Positions 12,931 through 64,000 of a DNA stretch of 64,000 nt are shown piece by piece. A program made the position numbers and the translations under genes. The stretch lies in the NCBI RefSeq assembly GCF_046119375.1, contig NW_027362772.1, positions 65,906,001-65,970,000 of the forward strand, written 5' to 3'. Source of the stretch: Phyllobates terribilis. Its lineage: Eukaryota. Every line of letters begins with the position of its first letter. Positions within the stretch are counted from its first letter, which is position 1. The notes beneath the pieces are model-generated. The model was not told the DNA's origin, searched no databases, and was given only the letters and a program-made list of their open reading frames with translations.

Positions 12931-13714
12931 TCGACTTTTCAGCTACATGCAAATATGACTTTATCCTCGTTCACAAAATTTTAGAGCATAAACTGCAGAG
13001 GGGCCCACCGGAGGATTCTCTTATGCTCCTGTGGGCCAGTCCAAGCCTGGACCCTACAATCTTAACAAGCTTACAAATTGATTCACTTGTATCTCACTCT
13101 GCATTCTGCTATGTACTGTGATACGTAGTAGCTGTAGAATCTACATTTTTCTATAGCAAAAAGGCATTTTAGCCAAAATGACAAGCATTTAAGAAAAAAA
13201 TTCCCCAAATGAGTCCTTATCTTTTAATTCTTAATTTCAAAGGGTTTATCATGATTTATGAGAGAAGTAGCACCAATAGATGGCACTAAAGAGACAGCTT
13301 TCTTTCTTCTAGAGGAGAGCTAGTTAGCATACCTATTCTCCCAGAGATAATTGCTTGCCCAACAAGATTTAAAGCCGATGTAATCTGTCAGATTCTAATG
13401 CTAACCACCCATTGTTTGTAATAATTGTGTGATGTGAATTGATTAAACGACTAAACGGTGTTTCCAAAAATGCTCGTTCTTTGTGCATGGTGTCTAAGGG
13501 GTAACATTCTCCTTGTGGAGAGTGACAAGCCAAGCCTGGCATGTCAGAGTGAGGAGACTTATAAGCCATGCATTCTCCTTTAAGAAATTAAATATGTAAA
13601 TTATCTCTTCAGAGAAGAAGAGAACTAGAACTCTAGTCCCACCTATTGGAAGCAGCGATCCTAAAAGTCAATATCGACTCTTTAACGAGCCTGGCAATAT
13701 GACATAGGAAAAAA

Positions 13715-13795
13715 GCCAAACCAGAATTTCAATTTGCAGACACGATGTTTCGGGTGTTGCCCTTCATCAGTGCAAAGTATGAGATCTGATTTGGC
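13715..13795 (-). ncRNA. Type I hammerhead ribozyme motif, copy 1 (core intact)
   Basis: UUUGCA-CUGAUGA-A-GGG CAACA CCC-GAA-ACA UCG UGU-C-UGCAAA; GUC cleavage predicted between 13739 and 13738; stem I extends through an internal loop to GCCAAA/UUUGGC. Confidence 0.85.
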
Positions 13796-14060
13796 TCAGT
13801 GAGAGGCTCTGGACTGGGGTATAAGGGGTAACGTTTCTCCTTATAGAGAGTAACAAGCCAAGCCTGGCTTTTCAGAGTGAGGAGACTTATAATCCATGCA
13901 TTCTCCTTTGGGAAATTAGATATGCAAATTGTCCCTTCAGAGAAGAAGAGGACTAAAACTCTAGCGCCACCTATTGGAAGCAGCGATCCTAAAATTCAAT
14001 ATTGACTCTTTAACGAGCCTTGCAATATGACGTAGGAAAAAAGCCAAACCAGAATCTATA

Positions 14061-14105
14061 TTTGTAGACATGGTGTTTCGGTGTGTTGCCCCTCGTCACT
14101 GCAAA
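14061..14105 (-). ncRNA. Hammerhead motif copy 2 (C3-to-G, probably inactive)
   Basis: UUUGCA-GUGACGA-GGGG CAACA CACC-GAA-ACA CCA UGU-C-UACAAA. Confidence 0.75.
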
Positions 14106-14897
14106 GTATGAGATCTGATTGGCTAGGTAAGACTCTCTGGACTGGGGTTTAAGGGATAACTTTTCTCCTTATGGAGTGACAAGCCATGTCTGTCATGTCA
14201 AAGTGAGGAGACTTATAAGCCATGCATTCTCCTTTTTGGAAATTAAATATGCAAACTGCGTTCTTTGTGCATAAAATCATTTAGGGGAGCAAAAAAGTTC
14301 TCGTTCAAGTTTCAAAAAATTCTGTAATGTAAATGGCAGTTGTTTGCTCGGTCAACGCTTTGACTGACAAAAACGAGGAGTGGAAATTCAAGTCCTAAAT
14401 ATGATTGTTTGTATTCCAAGGCAATAGTTCAGTTTCAGTTAAAGCATTGGAACGAGCACCATATTCGCAGATGGAGCGAGAACATATTCGTAAATAGCTA
14501 AAAAAAAAATTTGCTTTGTGCATTCAATTAAATATTCTTTGTAGAATATTAATGGAAAAAGTTTGTATAATACTTTATGAATTCATGCATTCAAAACAGT
14601 TAGTATCACTTATGGGATTTGAACTTTGAAAACATCTACATTTCAGTGTCTGTGTGATCACAATGCTTGATGGTACGATATAATGATCGTTCTTTAATCA
14701 TTCATTCTTGATTCTCATACTATCTAAACACTAGTCTGACATTGTTTACTGGTCGTGGTCAAATCGTTCACCATCTAATCGATTATCTGCTCGTGTAAAT
14801 GAACCCTTACTATGCAAAGAGAGATGGCAGTCTCCACAAGGAAAATATTACCCCCCAAAGCAGACAATCCATATGTCTGTTATAAAAATAACAACTT

Positions 14898-39706: not shown

Positions 39707-41980
39707 ACTTATATTCTGTATTGTACTCCAGAGCTGCACTCACTATTCTGCTGGTGCAGTCACTGTGTACATACATTACATTACTGGTCCTGTACTGATC
39801 CTGAGTTACATCCTGTATTATACTCCAGAGCTGCACTCACTATTCTGCTGGTGCAGTCACTGTGTACATACATTACATTACTGATCCTGAGTTACATACT
39901 GTATTATGCTCCAGAGCTGCACTCACTATTCTGCTGGTGCAGTCACTGTGTACATACATTACATTACTGATCCTGAGTTACATCCTGTATTATACTCCAG
40001 AGCTGCACTCACTATTCTGCTGGTGCAGTCACTGTGTACATACATTACATTACTGATCCTGTACTGATCCTGAGTTACATCCTGTATTATACTCCAGACC
40101 TGCAATCACTATTCTGCTGGTGCAGTCACTGGGTACATACATTACATTACTGATCCTGAGTTACATCCTGTATTATACTCCAGAGCTGCACTCACTATTC
40201 TGCTGGTGCAGTCACTGTGTACATACATTACTGATCCTGAGTTACATACTGTATTATGCTCCAGAGCTGCACTCACTATTCTGCTGGTGCAGTCACTGTG
40301 TACATACATTACATTACTGATCATGAGTTACATCCTGTATTATACTCCAGAGCTGCACTCACTATTCTGCTGGTGCAGTCACTGTGTACATACATTACAT
40401 TACTGATCCTGTACTGATCCTGAGTTACATCCTGTATTATTCTCCAGAGCTGCACTCACTATTCTGCTGGTGCAGTCACTGTGTACATACATTACATTAC
40501 TGATCCTGTACTGATCCTGAGTTACATCCTGTATTATACTCCAGAGCTGCACTCACTATTCTGCTGGTGGAGTCACTGTGTACATACATTACATTACTGA
40601 TCATGAGTTACATCCTGTATTATACTCCAGAGCTGCACTCACTATTCTGCTGGTGCAGTCACTGTGTACATACATTACATTACTGATCCTGAGTTATATT
40701 CTGTATTATACTCCAGAGCTGCACTCACTATTCTGCTGGTGCACTCACTGTGTACATACATTACATAACTTATCCTGAGTTACATCCTGTATTATACTCC
40801 AGAGCTGTACTCACTATTCTGCTTGTACAGTCACTGTGTACATACATTACATTACTGATCCTGAGTTACATCCTGTATTATACTCCAGAGCTGCACTCAC
40901 TATTCTGCTGGTGTAGTCACTGTGTACATACATTACATTATTGATCCTGAGTTACATCCTGTATTATACTCCAGAGCTGCACTCACTATTCTGCTGGTGC
41001 AGTCACTGTGTATGTACATTACATTACTTATCCTGTACTGATCCTGAGTTACATCCTGTATTATACTCCAGCGCTGCACTCACTATTCTGCTGGTGCAGT
41101 CACTGTGTACATACACTACAGTACTGATCCAGAGTTACATCCTGTATTATACTCCAGAGCTGCACTCACTATTCTGCTGGTGCAGTCACTGTGTACATAC
41201 ATTACATTACTGATCCTGAGTTACATCCTGTATTATACTCCAGAGCTGCACTCACTATTCTGCTGGTGCAGTCACTGTGTACATACATTACATTACTGAT
41301 CCTGTACTGATCCTGAGTTACATCCTGTATTATACCCCAGAGCTGCACTCACTATTCTGCAGGTGCAGTCACTGTGTACATACACTACAGTACTGATCCA
41401 GAGTTACATCCTGTATTATACTCCAGAGCTGCACTCACTATTCTGCTGGTGCAGTCACTGTGTACATACATTACATTACTGATCCTGTACTGATCCTGAG
41501 TTACATCCTGTATTACACTCCAGAGCTGCACTCACTATTCTGCTGGTGCAGTCACTGTGTACATACAGTACATTACTGATCTTGAGTTACATCCTGTATT
41601 ATACTCCAGAGCTGCACTGACTATTCTGCTGGTGCAGTCACTGTGTACATACATTACATTACTGATCCTGTACTGATCCTGAGTTACATCCTGTATTATA
41701 CTCCAGAGCTGCACTCACTATTCTGCAGGTGCAGTCACTGTGTACATACACTACAGTACTGATCCAGAGTTACATCCTGTATTATACTCCAGAGCTGCAC
41801 TCACTATTCTGCTGGTGCAGTCACTGTGTACATACATTACATTACTGATCCTGTACTGATCCTGAGTTACATCTTGTATTATACTCCAGAGCTGCACTCA
41901 CTATTCTGCTGGTGCAGTCACTGTGTACATACATTACATTACTGATCCTGAGTTACATCCTGTATTATACTCCAGAGCTG
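39707..41980. repeat. 86/97-bp minisatellite, ~25 copies
   Basis: GTATTATACTCCAGAGCTGCACTCACTATTCTGCTGGTGCAGTCACTGTGTACATACATTACATTACTGATCCTGAGTTACATCCT, with or without an 11-bp TGATCCTGTAC insert. Confidence 0.95.
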
Positions 41981-43089: not shown

Positions 43090-44220
43090 TCATAGTATAG
43101 TCGGAGGAGCTGAGCAGGTTAATATATAGGTTTATGGGAAATTATTCAATATAATTTGTAATTATGTCCGTTTTTATGTTTAGGAGTCAAGAGGCCGGTT
43201 CTACTTAGCATAAAGGAGGAGTCAAGCTGATTAATATATAGGTTGATGGAGATTATTCAGCATAATTTGTAAATATGCTAGTTTTTATGCTTAGGAGTCC
43301 AGTGGGCGGTCCTACTTAGTATAAAGAAGGAGGAGTCAAGATGATTAATATATAGGTTTATGGGAAATTATTCAGCATAATTTGTATTCATGCAGGTTTT
43401 TATGCTTAGGAGTCCAGTGGGCGGTCTTTCTTAGTATAAAGGAGGAGGAGTCAAGCTGATTAATATATAGATTTATGGGAAATTATTCAGCATAATTTGT
43501 ATTCATGCCAGTTTTTATGCTTAGGAGTCCAGTGGGCGGTCCTACTTAGTATAAAGGGGAGGAGTCAAGCTAATTAATATATAGATTTATGGGAAATGAT
43601 TCAACATCATTTTTAATTATGCCAGTTTTTATGCTTAGGAGTTCAGTGGGCGGTCCTACTTAGTATAGAGGAGGAGGAGTCAAGATGATTAATATATAGG
43701 TTTATGGAGATTATTAAGCACAATTTGTAGTTATGCTAGTTTATATGCTTAAGGAGTCCAGTGGGCGGTCCTATTTAGTATAAAGGAGGAGGAGTCAAGC
43801 TGATTAATATCTAGGTTTATGGGAAATTATTCAGCATATTTTGTAATTATACTAGTTTTATGCTAAGGAGTCCAGTGGGCGGTCCTATTTAGTATAAAGG
43901 AGGAGGAGTCAAGCTGATTAATATCTAGGTTTATGGGAAATTTTTCAGCATAATTTGTAATTATACCAGATTTTATGTTTAGGAGTCCAGTAGGCGGTCC
44001 TACTTAGTACAAAGCGGGAGGAGTCAAGATGATTAATATATAGGTTTATGGGAAATTATTCAGCATAATGTGTAATTTTACCAGTCTATGTTTAGGAGTC
44101 CAGTGGGCGGTCCTACTTAGTGATTAAAGCTATCAGTGCTGTCATACAAGGAAAGCTGTCAATCACTGATTAGGACCGCCCATAGGACTCCTAAGCATAG
44201 ATAGAGCAAGGATATAATTT
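43090..44220. repeat. ~115-bp tandem array, ~9 copies, ending in an inverted unit fragment
   Basis: TTAGGAGTCCAGTGGGCGG at 43291, 43406, 43521, 43635...; inverted GGACCGCCCATAGGACTCCTAAGCAT at ~44173. Confidence 0.9.
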
Positions 44221-44795: not shown

Positions 44796-44970
44796 GCCAA
44801 ATCAGATCTTCTGCTTTGTACTGATGAGGGGCAAAAACCCTACAAGACGTATTTGAAAATAGTGTCTAGTTTGGCTTTAATTCTAAGATATGTAGCAAGG
44901 CTTGTTAAAGGGTCGATATTGACTTTTAGGATCGCTACTTTCTATAGGAGTTCTTGTTCTCTTCCTCTCT
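44796..44970 (+). mobile_element. Decayed partial retrozyme unit
   Basis: GCCAAATCAGATCT..CTTTGTA-CTGATGA-GGGG CAAAA ACCC (GAAA lost), then GCTTGTTAAAGGGTCGATATTGACTTTTAGGATCGCTACTT matching the other units. Confidence 0.75.
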
Positions 44971-45016
44971 GCACAAACTATTTACATCATCTGTGAATGG
45001 AATGGCAGATCTTCAC

Positions 45017-46138
45017 TGTTACACACTTGCCCCAGGTCCATGGTCTGCTCAACTCTCTTGTGCTCCACGCTGGGCTTTGCAAGTAGCCCGGTGTGCTCAC
45101 ATGTGATCCTATACCTGAGTCTATATAAGGTTCACCAAGACACACACCTGTGCCTTGGTATTAAGAGTTTTAGCTTGTTTGTGACCACGATATTATCAGT
45201 ACCTGTCTGTGGTCTCCAGGACCTTTGCTACCTGTCTGTGGTCTCCAAGACCTCTGCTACCAATTTGCAGTATCCAGGATTTCTACTACCTGTCTGAGGT
45301 CTCCAGGACCTTTGCTACGTGTCTGTGGTCTCCAGGACCTCAGCTATTTGTCTCGGGTCTCCAGGACCTCTGCTACGCTCTTCGGTCTCCAGGACCTCTG
45401 CTACCTGTTTGAAATCTTCAGAACCTCTGCTACCTGTTTGAAATCTCCAGGACCTCTGCTACCTGTCTGCAGTCTTCAGGACCTCTAATATCTGTTTGAT
45501 GTCTCCAGGACCTCTGTTATTTGTCTGAGGTCTCCTGGACCCATCTGCGATTTCCTTGACCTTTGCTACCTGTCTGCAGTCTCCAAAATCTTTGCTACCT
45601 GTCTGTGGTCTCCAGGGCCTCTGCTACCCTCTGCGGTCTCCAGTATCTCTGCTATCTGTCTACGGTCTCCAGGACCTCAGCTACCTGTCCATGGTCTCCA
45701 GGACCTCTGCTACCTGTCTTGGCTGTCTTTGGTCTCCAGGATCTCAGTTGCTTGTCTGTGGTATCCAGGACCTCTACTACCTGTCTGTGGTCTCCTGGAC
45801 CTCTGCTACCTGTCTGTGGTCTCCAGGACCACTGCTACCTGTCTTTGTTGTCTTTGGTCTCCAGGATCTCTGTTGCCTGTCTGTGGTCTCCAGGACCTCT
45901 GCTACCTGTCTGTGGTCTCCAGGACCTCTGCTACCTGTCTGTGGTCTTCAGGACCTCTGTTACCTGTCTTTGCAGTCTTTGGTCTCCTGGATCTCTGTTG
46001 CCTGTCTGTGGTCTCCAGGACCTCTGCTACCTGTCTGCATTTCCAATGTGCCTAAACTGTCTTCTGCACTGACACCCAAGGCCCTGGTGCCCATCCATAC
46101 CTGGCTTAGTGCATCCACCTCATCTACAAAGCCTAACA
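45017..46138 (+). mobile_element. Solo LTR with an internal 29-bp VNTR
   Basis: TGTTA...TAACA, 5-bp TSD TTCAC, CTATATAAG at ~45121; ACCTCTGCTACCTGTCTGTGGTCTCCAGG array ~45197-46040. Confidence 0.85.
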
Positions 46139-48824: not shown

Positions 48825-49802
48825 TAGTGAGCAAGCTCTGAGTCATGTGCAGACGTCTCTGTGCAGGAGTGTAGTGAGCATGCTCTGGGTCATGTGCAGA
48901 CTTCTCTGTGCAGGAGTGTAGTGAGCATGCTCTGGGTCATGTGCAGACGTCTCTGTGCAGGAGCGTAGTGAGCATGCTCTTTGTCATGTGCAGCAATTTC
49001 TGTGCAGGAGCGTAGTGAGCATGCTCTGTGTCATGTGCAGACGTCTCTGTGCAGGAGTGTAGTGAGCATGCTCTGGGTCATGTGCAGACGTCTCTGTGCA
49101 GGAGTGTAGTGAGCATGCTCTGGGTCATGTGCAGACGTCTCTGTGCAGGAGTGTAGTGAGCATGCTCTGTGTTGTGCAGAAGTCTCTGTGCAGGAGTGTA
49201 GTGAGCATGCTCTGTGTCATGTGCAGAAGTCACCGTGCAGGAGTGTAGTGAGCATGCTCTGAGTCATGTGCAGATGTCTCTGTGCAGGAGTGTAGTGAGC
49301 ATGCTCTGGGTCATGTGCAGACGTCTCTGTGCAGGAGTGTAGTGAGCATGCTCTGGGTCATGTGCAGACGTCTCTGTGCAGGAGTGTAGTGAGCATGCTC
49401 TGGGTCATGTGCAGAAGTCACTGTGCAGAAGTGTAGTGAGCATGCTCTGTGTTGTGCAGAAGTCTCTGTGCTGGAGCGTAGTGAGCATGCTCTTTGTCAT
49501 GTGCAGCAATCTCTGTGCTGGAGCGTAGTGAATATGCTCTGTGTCATGTGCAGAAGTCTCTGTGCAGGAGTGTAGTGAGCATGCTCTGGGTCATGTGCAG
49601 ACGTCTCTGTGCAGGAGTGTAGTGAGCATGCTCTGGGTCATGTGCAGACGTCTCTGTGCAGGAGTGTAGTGAGCATGCTCTGGGTCATGTGCAGAAGTCT
49701 CTGTGCTGGAGCGTAGTGAGCATGCTCTTTGTCATGTGCAGCAATCTCTGTGCTGGAGCGTAGTGAGTATGCTCTGTGTCATGTGCAGAAGTCTCTGTGC
49801 AG
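48825..49802. repeat. 47-bp minisatellite, ~21 copies
   Basis: GTAGTGAGCATGCTCTGGGTCATGTGCAGACGTCTCTGTGCAGGAGT; period 47 (48871 to 48918). Confidence 0.95.
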
Positions 49803-49962
49803 GGAGAAGGAGGAGGAGGGAGGATCATCCTGCTTGATAATGAAATGTTGGTGACTACAGATGACCCCAGTGTACACAGGGCATAATGACTATGAACATA
49901 TGCAGTGAATTTATTGTCCTCACTGGCTGTTATGGGTCCACATTACACACAGTAGAACTTAC

Positions 49963-58580: not shown

Positions 58581-60296
58581 TACGTATTGTGCTTGGAAAT
58601 TACATGGATCTTGGTGTTTTGCTTGTATTCTGAATCCTGATATAGATTCGGTTTGTGCCCTGACTTCTTCATATTCTGTAATTGTCCTCTATCCTGAAAG
58701 AGGCCTGTTTGACAACATTCTGACTGACTACATGGTATCTAACCCAGACTATTAATCAGATTTTGGCTTTGGTTTTCTGATTCTCGCCTTGTTTTGTCAC
58801 TCCAATTACTGATCTTTCTAGCTAGACTACTGTTGCCTCCAGCTTGCTCCTCCGGCCAGCAGTCACTCTGTGAAAGCTAACCAGGGGACCATGTTGAAGT
58901 CCAAATCCCTGTATAAAGCAAAAATGGTGATGGAGACATTTACTCTCGGATATCCCAGTCTGAGTGACTAATGCCAAGTCAGTCCCTTTGGAGGTAATGG
59001 CCTCTGACAGACTTTACACTAATATTAAAAAATATGTTTGTAATGTTGGTGGGTAGTGATCCTCCAGGCTTACCCTGGAGGGGCATGACTAAGCAACTAC
59101 CTGGTGTTCACTGAAGCCTTTGGTGGTGAGGTTAGGCTTGGGGGCAGGTAGTCGCCAGGTGCCACTTAAGGGCAGCACCTGAGGCTGCGGCAGCTGACCG
59201 AAGTGTCATAGGCTCATGTACGTGGTAAGGTGGTGCAAGACAGATGTGAAGTCATATGGTCCGAGGTCGGGGCAGGCAGCACAGGATCAGAAAACGTAAC
59301 CGAGGTCAGAAGGAGAAATTTCATGCAGGACGGCTAAACAGGCCAGGTCCTAAATGGTAAGCTGGATACAGATGGTTGCATGCACAAAGACTGACAAAGC
59401 AGAAACCATGTTCGAGCAAGGAATGGTGGGTGGAGATGCCTAAAATAGGCCCTACTGGCAGAAGATAGGCCGGGGAACCAAATCTCTGCAGGACACAGCA
59501 GGGTTAAATTCCCGCATAGACCAGCTACGTCCCCTAGGGCCAGATGGATTCACATGCAGCAGCTACACAAAGTAGCACCTGAAGAAACCAATTCAGCCAC
59601 ATGGCTTGCCATGAGGAGACACCACACAGTGAGGAGGGGGGGCGATAAGTGTACACGCTAGTTGCCGCCATGACAATGTTTTATTAAAAAAAATAACAAC
59701 TGAATTGAGAGGAATCTCCTCCATATCATACATAATAACTAGAGCTAATGCCAGCACACCACAATTAAAATGGTGGATAGAAGCCAGATTATTTGGTCTA
59801 AAAAGCAAGTCATACATAATATAAGAGGAAGTAGAAGAACATTATTATATGTCGGAGAAACTAGGAGGTGGCGGGCATGATTTCATATATCCACTGGAGT
59901 TTTCGTTGACGGCAATTCCAACTCTCTTATGCCCCGGATGTGTCCTTCATAGAGCCAGTTGGTTCAATGCAACTTGAATTCAGTGTTCTAGAAATATATA
60001 TTTATTGAAATATTTAAAATATATTTTATAGAATTAAACTTTATGAAATTCAAAGGTCCAAAAATGTACAATTTGATTTGCATAAATTGAAAAAAAAAAT
60101 ACCTGCCATCATTTTACAAGTTACAGAAGATTTTATCAGCCACAGAAGGTTTAGATGACCTCAGGCATGGCTGCATGGGCTTCTCCATAATGCCTTGCAT
60201 CTATTACATTGTATAGTGCAGCCAATCAGGATGGACTATCATAGCCTGTTCAAAAGCCTTGGTAGGGAATGCAGCAGTCATCTTAAGAGTTAAAGG

Positions 60297-60722
60297 GCTT
60301 GTTAAAGGGTTGATAATGACTTGTAGGATTGCTACTTCCAATAGGTGGCACTAGAATTCTAGTCCTCTTCCTCTCCGAAGAGACAATTTGCATATTTAAC
60401 TTCCCAGAGGAGCATGCAAGGCGTTTATCCACGTACTGGCATGCCAGACCTGGCATGCCACTGTCCATAAGGAGAAACCTTACCTCTTAGGTCCCAGTCT
60501 TAGCATCTCACCCAGCCAAATCAGATCTCATACTTTGTACTGACGATCGGCAATACCCCGAAACAGCGTGTCTACAAATTGAGATTCTGATTTGGATTTT
60601 ATCCTAAGTCATATTTCAAAGCTTGTTAAAGGGTTGGTAATGACTTGTAGGGTTGCTACTTCCAATAGGTAGCACTTGAGTTCAAGTCCTCTTCTTCTCT
60701 GAAGAGACAATTTGCATATTCA
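60297..60722 (+). mobile_element. Retrozyme-like insertion, ~1.3 units (period 324)
   Basis: GCTTGTTAAAGGGTT at 60297 and 60621; homologous to the reverse complement of 13489-14258; possible TTAAGAGT flank duplication (60283, 60724). Confidence 0.82.
60515..60596 (+). ncRNA. Type I hammerhead motif, copy 3 (stem II damaged)
   Basis: UCAGAUCUCA-UAC-UUUGUA-CUGACGA-UCGG CAAUA CCCC-GAA-ACA GCG UGU-C-UACAAA-U-UGAGA-U-UCUGA; predicted cut after 60572. Confidence 0.8.
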
Positions 60723-62929
60723 TTTAAGAGTGTTACAAGCTATGGAGAAGACCTTAGAGCTCACAACTCAGCAATAGAAATAAGAAGAGAAAGCCCTTAA
60801 ACATTAGACAAGTACTCCAGACAGTAATGTGTTATGCAACTTCAGAAGTGAATTAGATGAGAGAAATAATCTGGGAATAGTATAGAAATTCAATTGATAG
60901 GGGAAGTGAGAAAGAAAGCAGAAGTTTCAGCAGCAGCTGTGCCAGACTCAGTGGGATTGATTAGTGACATGGTCGAGCTGGCATCTGTCCTGCTGCACTT
61001 CAATTACAATTGCACATTTTTTCTTCATTCTTAATGCACTAGAAATCAGAAACAAGATAGCACAATAGTTTAAAAAAAATCTGAAATTAGTATCAGAGAC
61101 AGACTTCATGCTTGTTACAATTGACTGTACTGAGTTTTTCTTATTTCTTGAGCAATCATTGTTTTGAAGAGAAATAATTGATTCTTTTAAATACAAAAAA
61201 AAAATTCCCCACAATCCAAACCCTTTAATTGTGACTGTCTATCTCAAAAAGTGCGCATGGCACCAACAATATTCTTTGTGCATTGATTTTACTAGTCATA
61301 TTTTACATCAAAATAGTGCCCTGTTGCAGATGTTACTTTTTAGATGTGTACTTATCTAGCATTTCTTCATATGTCATTTTTGGTCAAGGGGTTGAATTTT
61401 GTTAAAGAAAAAACAATTGGAAAAAAAAGTAGACATTAACTGTGCATTTCCATTTTCGCACTCCTGTTTTATTAATCCATATTTACAACAATACATGTTA
61501 CATCTATAGTGCGGCCTGCTGCCACATGTTGCATTCTGTATGTTTACCTACCTACAATTTCTTGTTGTGTCATTTTTGGCAAAGGTTGAAAAATTGGGAT
61601 TGAAAAGATAGTCAAAAGTTAATAATAGTGTTGTAAAAAATGTATGGTAAAAGAAAAAGTGGTAATGGTATGGTAGTGAAAATAAAGCCCCATACCATGG
61701 TAAGAATGTGGTAGCCGCTAGCAGCAGAAGCGCCACCATCATTGGCACCAGCCATCCAATCAGTGGTATTACTGAATGCACAGTTAGCTTCCTTTTCCTT
61801 TGACAAGTGTATTAGTGTGGAGGAAGTTATGGAATATAAGGCACATCACTAGTCTCAGTCACAGCAGTTTGATGTTACCTCTGACAGTGACACCGTCTGT
61901 TTAAGTCAATGTTCTGCAAAAGAATGGTCGGTCTAATCACACATGACTAAAAGGGATAATTTTTGGACCAGTTTTTAATTTTAATTGACATGAAAAGTTG
62001 GTCAATGTTCTGTGTTATTAAATCGAGTGTTGGTTACAACCGGATTACCATCTGTTTCTATGGTGAGGACACTTTGACATTACTAAGGCTTAGTTTGTAT
62101 TAAAAAGCTTGAAAGGGGTTGGATACAGATGTAGGAAAATTCAGAGTGTCACACACCTCTTTTCAAGACAATTGGAAGCATTGAACTAGATCGATTTGTT
62201 GCAAATCAAATTTTTGAAAAATATTGTTGAACCCTGGGAAATTTGAGTTTCAAAACATTTGAGCATTTCTAGCCCTTTAGAACATGTGTTGTGCAGAGAC
62301 ACACTACACAGATAATATTAGACATAGCTTCCCTTTGTGTAAAAAGTATGATAAATATAATTAAAAAACCAGCAATTATCTTTTAAAATACTTAAAACAC
62401 TATTTTTTTCATCAAAAATAATATAAAAAGCTGATACATTTCCTTTACATTGTTCCAATACTTTCAGACAACTTTTCATAGTTAATGTGATAAAGAGAAA
62501 ATCTGTCTATCACATTTAAAAATTATTTTATCTTACCCCCCCAAAAAAAATCACTCTATGACCCCCACTAGGTGTGTCTCCTCTGTATAATGTGCTTTCT
62601 ACTGTCTGTTGTCAAGCAAAATTGTCCATTTCCTGTTCTCAAGTGTAGTTTCACTGAAGCAAACTACAGGAAGTGGGAGAAAGTCTTAGGCTCCTTAAAG
62701 AAAGTGGGGGAGCGTCTTTGTCTCTCTACAGGAAGTGGATCTTTGTCTCCTTAAAGGAAGTGGAGGAGGGTCTGTGTCTCTCTACAGGAAGTGGATCTTT
62801 CTTTCCTTATTGGTGGTGGGGACGAGCCTTTATCTCTCTATAGCATATATGTCAAACTCTGGCCCATGTGCCAAATCTGGTCTGCGGGGTGGTTATTTAG
62901 ATGTGGCCCGTGACACCAGAATCGCCACC

Positions 62930-64000
62930 CCTATGTGGGGCCATTATTCTGTATGAAGGACTGTGTGGGGCCTATTATTCTGTATGGAGGACTATGTGGG
63001 GTCATTATTCTGTATGGAGAACTATGTGGGGCCCAGTATACTGTATGGAGGACTATGTGGGGCCCATTATTCTGTATGGAGGACTATGTGGGGCCCATTA
63101 TTCTGTATGGAGGGCTTTGTGGGGTCATTATTCTGTATGGAGAACTATGTGGGGCCCATTATACTGTATGGAGGACTATGTGGGGCCCATTATTCTGTAT
63201 GGAGGACTATGTGCTGCCCATTATACTGTATAGAGGACTATGTGGGGTCCATTATTCTGTATGGAGGACTATGTGGGTCCATTATTCGGTACAGAGGACT
63301 ATGTGGGGTCCATTATTCTGTATGGTGGACTATATGGCGCCCATCATACTGTATAGAAGACTATGTGGGGTCCATTATACTGTATGAAGGACTATGTGGG
63401 GCCCATTATTCTGTATGGAGGACTTTGTGGGACCTATTATTCTGTATGGAGGACTATGTGGGGCCCATTATACTGTATGGAGGACTATGTGGGGCCCATT
63501 ATACTGTATGGAGTACTATGTGGTGCCCATTATTCTGCATGGAGGACTAGGCTTGGCCAATTATTCTGTATGGAGGACTATGTGGGGTCCATTATTCTGT
63601 ATAGAGGACTATGTGGGGCTCATTATACTGTATAGAGGACTATGTGGGGTCCATTATTCTGCATGGAGGACTATGTAGGGCCCATTATACTGTATGGAGG
63701 ACTATGTGGGGCCATTATACTGTATGTAGGATTATGTGGGGCCCATTATTCTGTATGGATGACTATGTGGGGCCCATTATTCTATATGGAGGACTATGTG
63801 GGGCCCTTTATTCTGTATGGAGGACCATGTGGGGCCAATTATTCTGTATGGAGGACTATGTGGGGCCATTATTCTGTATGGAGAACCATGTGGGGCCCAT
63901 TATTCTGTATGGAGGACTATGTGACCCCCATTATTCTGTATGGAGGACCATGTGGGGCCCATTATTCTGTATGGAGGACTATGTGGGGCCCATTATACTG
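62930..64000. repeat. 31-bp minisatellite running to the window end
   Basis: TATGTGGGGCCCATTATTCTGTATGGAGGAC, more than 30 units. Confidence 0.95.

Follow-up and report, generated by a model that had tools for sequence, protein, structure and literature searches.

The closest described relatives of the element analysed here are the amphibian non-LTR retrozymes, namely Rtz_331 and Rtz_353 of the axolotl and satellite 2 of the newt. As described (PMC7229834; PMC7761336), they consist of non-coding tandem units of approximately 330 bp with a G + C content below 50%, occur in very high copy numbers, contain a type I hammerhead with a canonical core and a weak palindromic stem III, have neither LTR nor PBS or PPT, and, where target-site duplications (TSDs) are present, have TSDs longer than 4 bp. 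A model in which retrozyme circles are copied by a borrowed reverse transcriptase (RT), with Penelope-like elements (PLEs) as candidate helpers, is stated in two papers (PMC7229834; PMC7761336). A preprint (bioRxiv 10.64898/2026.07.22.740005) describes vertebrate retrozymes as dependent on PLEs, with a mean unit length of 316 bp in amphibians and with dispersed monomers, dimers and multimers; it argues from co-occurrence and from homology to pLTRs, and prefers tandem growth in place that starts at a PLE terminus. The RT of the PLE PAc starts internally at two sites and extends both strands, and needs neither homology nor hammerhead cleavage (PMC11167929). PLE insertions can form partial tandems, carry inverted arms that are 5'-truncated, and have optional tails (PMC8557442). 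PMC7229834 and Li et al. (2026) call it open which helper serves the retrozymes of animals and how priming takes place on an RNA that lacks a usable 3' end.

Here, a 770-bp insertion in a 64-kb window of the Phyllobates terribilis genome (the window being the whole stretch of 64,000 nucleotides analysed) was characterised together with its relatives in the assembly. The insert is old and decayed and belongs to an abundant non-coding repeat that contains a hammerhead motif, a non-LTR retrozyme; by its sequence the unit falls into a known class with a predicted hammerhead of type I. Its likeness to the axolotl units, as compared here, is one of architecture, and the family is described from DNA. 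The class, the circle model and PLEs as candidate helpers have already been published; the copy in the window is a decayed relic, and the map of insertion ends presented below is mechanistic evidence. The parts used of the amphibian retrozyme papers (PMC7229834; PMC7761336) hold no such map, whereas two fixed starts, inversions joining them and TSD lengths are described here. No publication with such a map for retrozymes turned up in a literature search; subscription papers may contain one, as may the supplements to Li et al. (2026).

The insertion and its target site

The insertion occupies positions 13489–14258 of the window and interrupts an older dispersed repeat, below called the host repeat. 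Unit positions are numbered from 13489 on the plus strand.

13374–13488, no strand: left part of the host repeat, interrupted by the insert
13475–13488, no strand: left TSD copy, 14 bp, CGTTCTTTGTGCAT; its plus-strand 3' end is the putative primer of the first-strand cDNA
13489–13816, minus strand: unit 1, the RNA-3'-most, 328 bp, beginning at the fixed site A (GGTGTCTAAGGGG on the plus strand)
13489–13502, minus strand: site A, a family-wide fixed RNA-3' end, unit positions 1–14, about 247 nt 3' of the predicted cut
13584–13599, minus strand: site B in unit 1, a family-wide fixed end, unit positions 96–111, AATATGCAAAT-like on the plus strand
13733–13776, minus strand: type I hammerhead of unit 1, core CUGAUGA...GAAAC...GUC intact, recognised by eye and pattern
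13817–14145, minus strand: unit 2, 329 bp, 87% alike to unit 1
14061–14105, minus strand: second hammerhead, in unit 2, degenerate; core C3 reads G, with mismatches in stems I and II
14146–14258, minus strand: partial unit 3, 113 bp, with a 5'-truncated end at about unit position 113–115
14259–14272, no strand: right TSD copy, 14 bp, CGTTCTTTGTGCAT, an exact match
14259–14809, no strand: right part of the host repeat, continuing 13374–13488

The insert consists of the repeated unit alone, with no unique middle and no RT plus GIY-YIG open reading frame (ORF), and has a G + C content of about 0.42 in its region. It encompasses 2.34 units (770/329), and TRF reported a period of 328 with 2.3 copies and 87% matches. 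Read directly, its ends show no poly(A), TIR or LTR; a search for inverted repeats found none that pairs the ends, and PBS and PPT are absent as judged by eye. Cuts are predicted on the minus strand at 13739/13738 and 14067/14066, corresponding to unit position 251, so that neither insert end (unit positions 1 and about 113–115) lies at a cut; across the family, 1 of 154 ends falls within 8 nt of it. Site B is located about 147 nt 3' of the predicted cut, and the 770-bp copy does not end there. The initial annotation, which had described about 2.35 units, the lack of poly(A), TIR and LTR ends, ends away from the ribozyme cut and an exact 14-mer on both sides, was accurate in all these respects.

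The hammerhead of unit 1 has a stem I of UUUGCA/UGCAAA, a stem II of 3 bp and a weak, near-palindromic stem III. The C3G change seen in unit 2 abolishes cleavage in PAc (PMC11167929). Searches of the window with Rfam gave no hits at gathering score and no hammerhead family at E ≤ 10, and the hammerhead call therefore rests on the pattern and on conservation across copies, the core columns being 88–100% constant in the older subfamily to which the window copy belongs. The sub-threshold Rfam matches, such as one to whalefall-1 (21.9 vs. 37 bits), were taken as chance. Minimum free energy folding of the isolated hammerhead did not yield the active shape; the natural cut-to-cut monomer folded as a circle gave a z-score of −2.9 against 60 shuffles. 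The units differ by 6–8% from the commonest letters, and with decayed units and a broken second hammerhead the 770-bp copy itself is likely dead.

In the 64-kb window, CGTTCTTTGTGCAT occurs exactly twice, both times on the plus strand. In a chance control, an exact match of at least 14 nt was found in 59 of 5000 random pairs of 40-nt segments, the 64-kb window being rich in tandem arrays. Paralogs of the host repeat were searched for empty sites carrying a single 14-mer, as had been proposed for verification. Among 28 paralog rows, from which the window's own was excluded, both flanks were matched in 18, of which 16 lay at distinct places. The flank matches overlapped by exactly 14 bp in 14 of these 16, which hence hold the 14-mer once; of the remaining two, one has a 5-bp insertion and one another element at the site. 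The 14-bp repeat is a true TSD, for which the paralogous empty sites are a stronger control than the chance estimate. The perfection of the pair is unremarkable, since a perfect 14-mer pair has a probability of about 0.18 of surviving 6% divergence. Contigs assembled from sequencing runs agree with the junctions without differences, one run (X1, which may be the source sample) covering both and one from another study (X5) the left junction; none of the contigs of eight runs joined the flanks across the insertion, and no empty allele was seen among them.

In one host-repeat paralog (L141, at about 654 and 1501), another insertion, about 0.85 kb long, directly follows the position of the 14-mer, be it by chance or because the site is favoured. 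The host repeat of the window is itself flanked by two older unit fragments at 14825–14854 and 13273–13357, oriented opposite to the insert and corresponding to unit positions of about 9–39 and 78–161 (local scores of 44 and 48, compared with maxima of 29 and 40 for shuffled sequence). This arrangement suggests three nested layers: an old retrozyme, the host repeat within it, and the 770-bp copy within the host repeat.

Two further relatives are located in the window:

60296–60720, plus strand: related copy at 60.3 kb, 425 bp or 1.29 units long, about 80% alike, oriented opposite to the 770-bp insert
44796–44992, plus strand: older partial relative, 72–75% alike, beginning at about site B, with a decayed hammerhead core

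For the 60.3-kb copy, about 1.3 units and ends different from those of the 770-bp insert had been noted. Both observations hold, but the ends are not random, as the copy begins at the family-wide site B (60720). Its TSD is tentative (8 bp, TTAAGAGT, at 60283–60290 and 60724–60731). Unrelated tandem arrays, whose periods range from 26 to 177 bp, are also numerous in the window, at 39709–41980, 43119–44121, 45200–46037, 48825–49803, 62931–64000 and elsewhere.

Insertion ends across the family

The 10.6-Gb assembly was searched with the full unit, which contributed 29 loci, and with two 91-bp mid-unit queries, which contributed another 48. After 13 of 90 rows had been dropped as duplicates, 77 non-redundant loci were obtained, which are the best hits among thousands of candidates and not a random sample. 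The insertion ends of the family are not free: on the RNA-3' side there are two fixed sites inside the unit. In hammerhead sense, 55 of the 113 RNA-3' outer ends of the 77 loci lie at site A and 38 at site B, together 93. In the subset of 48 loci from the mid-unit queries, 27 ends at A and 28 at B out of 72 compare with an expected 10% (p about 1e-39, for windows chosen after inspection of the data). The 5' ends are scattered, with 4 of 41 located within A or B; a mild pile-up near positions 94–114 (7 of 41) is confounded by the choice of queries. The start junctions show no excess of microhomology (mean 0.28 nt vs. 0.41 under the null, 43 junctions).

Head-to-head inversions, in which both outer ends are 3' ends, make up 36 of the 77 loci. 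Where both ends could be classed (n = 22), 19 inversions pair A with B, two A with A and one B with B (p = 4e-4). Run lengths exceed one unit in 44 of 94 runs and two units in one; the longest run seen has about 3.2 units. A few near-identical internal duplications occur (L049 and L060). An all-versus-all comparison of the flanks revealed no upstream ORF common to the loci. Sequence of the family is also present in one run guessed to be RNA, which says nothing on expression.

TSD-like repeats with a score of at least 9 flank 30 of the 77 loci, compared with 7 of 600 mismatched flank pairs, and are 9–18 bp long; a few of those counted lie at a distance of 8–17 nt from the mapped ends and could have arisen by chance, and the other 47 loci have no clear TSD. 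In the younger subfamily, 16 of 39 loci have TSDs vs. 8 of 500 mismatched pairs (14 of these 39 loci are also among the 77). The proposal of target-primed retrotransposition with long, variable TSDs is borne out by these counts. The suggested tabulation of genomic copies gave variable TSD lengths and unit numbers, with RNA-3' ends at A or B and scattered 5' ends, which is not the pattern of fixed ends and constant short TSDs named as typical of DNA transposons.

Penelope-like elements of the genome

The genome was searched for GIY-YIG domains with the Pfam profile, and 30 of the loci found, together with 28 out of 33 further hits, were examined; of two GIY-YIG protein queries, 30 of 150 matches each were examined, with tens of thousands of candidates genome-wide. 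EN+ Penelope-like elements are present, with GIY-YIG ORFs above the Pfam cut-off and hammerhead-like motifs after the stop codon. One locus (L110) has a YIDD motif and a Cys-rich linker, the former of which we take to be RT-like. In a comparator GIY-YIG family whose 3' repeat includes a canonical hammerhead, 34 of 39 3' ends fall on one or the other of two sites separated by about 43 nt (eight rows at the reference edge were excluded as another repeat), and several loci have one end of each class in opposite orientation. The retrozyme and coding GIY-YIG elements of this genome have a common two-site end geometry.

This geometry resembles PAc/Poseidon of Anolis, in which two internal RT starts lie downstream of the hammerhead, both strands are extended and no primer homology is needed (PMC11167929), as well as EN+ PLEs with their 5' truncation, partial tandems, inverted 5'-truncated copies and optional tails (PMC8557442). 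Unlike EN+ PLEs, the retrozyme has no ORF, its sites A and B are about 100 nt apart in place of the 30–40 nt of the published PLE tail, and it matches none of the PLE ends examined. A search of 116 distinct GIY-YIG loci, a small part of the tens of thousands of candidates, yielded no helper whose end is homologous to the unit, and alignments of three PLE 3' regions to the unit were no better than shuffles. A likeness in an AU-rich motif between site B and PLE ends, seen by eye, was discarded since shuffled alignment gave no support. Only 2 of the 116 loci hold the unit, both as TSD-flanked insertions, and the apparent PLE linkage at L119/L179 and L240 was rejected for this reason: L240:1856-2051 is a younger-subfamily copy that ends at site B and has a 14-bp TSD, empty paralogs and an internal deletion, and L179:7391-7824 is a younger-subfamily A/B inversion with a 12-bp TSD. 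In contrast to the preprint on PLE-dependent retrozymes (bioRxiv 10.64898/2026.07.22.740005), no pLTR homolog was found among the loci examined here, and the anatomy points to multi-unit insertion in one event.

Template and mechanism of insertion

The non-integer unit number had initially been taken as a sign that the RT ran repeatedly round a circular monomer. As proof it fails, because a fixed start combined with 5' truncation yields the same if the transcript is an uncut tandem; what favours the circle is the sharing of private variants. In the younger subfamily, the distance is 2.7% within an insertion vs. 3.9% between loci, eight locus-private variants occur in at least two units vs. 0.8 by permutation (maximum 5 in 300), and marker pairs are both-minor in 39 and one-minor in 22 cases, compared with expected values of 12.6 and 94.2. 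Pairs in opposite orientation share markers as well (7 vs. 2). The window copy has rare letters common to its three units at positions 86 and 92 and to its two full units at 128 and 222. No column distinguished terminal from upstream units in 249 and 154 tests (best p = 0.003). In the older subfamily of the window, distances within and between loci are equal (11.5% each), private variants are borderline (6 vs. a mean of 1.5 and a maximum of 6) and marker concordance is weak (17/149 vs. 9.8/154.9). Among the locus-marker cases of the younger subfamily, 29 are uniform and 20 mixed, five of the latter at one site that is never uniform; the mixed cases imply that some insertions contain unlike units. 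The sharing of private variants by units of one insertion favours one re-read monomer, and given priming of the Penelope type we lean towards a circular template for the 770-bp copy.

The Penelope-type helper and its start sites could also have served an uncut linear tandem transcript (or a multimeric circle), with the unit number set by 5' truncation, a possibility that we regard as real but less likely. It accords with PAc, which inserts uncut RNA and whose insertion is left unchanged by hammerhead mutants (PMC11167929), with the unlike units of the 20 mixed cases, with the shortness of most runs, and with the slow cleavage expected from a weak stem III. However, locus-private variants in all units of an insertion require re-reading of a monomer or homogenisation, position-specific variants are missing, and a purely linear path would presumably only shorten the arrays over generations. 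Tandem units can duplicate in place, and insertion of a monomer-sized copy followed by local tandem duplication or homogenisation by gene conversion would also account for common variants and for the few near-identical duplications at L049 and L060. This course of events is nevertheless improbable: the excess of shared variants is no larger in the old subfamily (0.0049 vs. 0.0027 per site) than in the young one (0.0049 vs. 0.0011), which argues against accumulating conversion; each unit of the window copy is as far from its fellow units (11–13%) as from other loci, and the units hence are as old as the burst; and the arms of inversions have markers in common, too.

For the RT, the initial annotation had offered a LINE or Penelope as lender. 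A borrowed enzyme fits, and Penelope-like rather than LINE origin is indicated by the two fixed RNA-3' sites, the head-to-head inversions and the same geometry in the GIY-YIG family; insertion by internal priming of the Penelope type is very probable. TSDs of 9–18 bp and 5' truncation do fit target-primed reverse transcription by LINEs, a search with RVT_1 found abundant, unclassified LINE-like RT matches, and SINE-like copying from the RNA 3' end by a LINE RT/endonuclease, with twin priming as the source of inversions, might be considered. Yet the copies have no poly(A) or simple-repeat tail, start at two fixed internal sites and not at one defined 3' end, and have inverted arms that begin at the other fixed site and not at random. 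With the identical geometry of the GIY-YIG elements and neither insert end at the ribozyme cut, this explanation is largely refuted. Even less can be said for a DNA transposon or MITE, to which only the one fixed class of ends would correspond, given the lack of TIRs, the variable other end and the variable TSD length, or for a chance 14-mer beside a satellite, which conflicts with the single 14-mer in the empty paralogs; both are refuted.

The preferred reading, to which we assign a probability of roughly 0.7, is that the 770-bp insert with its 14-bp TSD was produced by a borrowed Penelope-like RT/GIY-YIG protein that started at a fixed internal site and probably went twice round a circular monomer. 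Source copies with two working hammerheads would be transcribed, cut into 329-nt monomers and ligated to circles, as published for the axolotl, with cleavage likely occurring in dimers because stem III is weak. The helper would nick both DNA strands 9–18 nt apart (14 nt for the window copy), and a nick would prime cDNA inside the RNA at A or B, here the plus-strand 3' end at 13488 at A. The RT would then have passed the cut site twice before stopping at about position 115, and joining to the other nick and fill-in would leave the 14-bp TSD. Priming from both nicks, in most cases from one at A and from the other at B, would give a head-to-head inversion. With internal priming, no free 3' end is required, and a circle thereby becomes workable as template.

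We further propose, tentatively, that a dimeric Penelope protein might grip one 329-nt RNA circle at A and B, prime from each nick and roll round the circle. Its helper would recognise the shape of the RNA, because no PLE end of like sequence was seen. If true, direct multimers and A/B inversions alike would come from one circular molecule, as would the shared private variants, and the copies would prove at the genomic level that a circRNA was reverse-transcribed into an animal genome by a rolling-circle mode.

To the questions of helper and priming, the end map offers a testable answer, namely a Penelope-type protein that primes inside the RNA at two named sites. The A/B pairing of the inverted arms is relevant, too, to how the second strand is made in Penelope transposition, a step that is still unsolved. 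The abundant comparator GIY-YIG family (L229:1790-2370 and L211-L240), of which L237 is a head-to-head inversion of 2.3 kb, is a good set for studying second-strand priming in PLEs. Many distinct GIY-YIG families have variant minimal hammerhead-like motifs that end in GAAACGCGT and are located 150–350 nt past the coding end (L092, L107, L110, L155, L158, L163, L170, L175 and L248). Another family, with open stretches of 555 amino acids, recurs every 140–150 kb or so on several contigs (C12, C73, C190 and C315), as if it were part of a giant tandem repeat.
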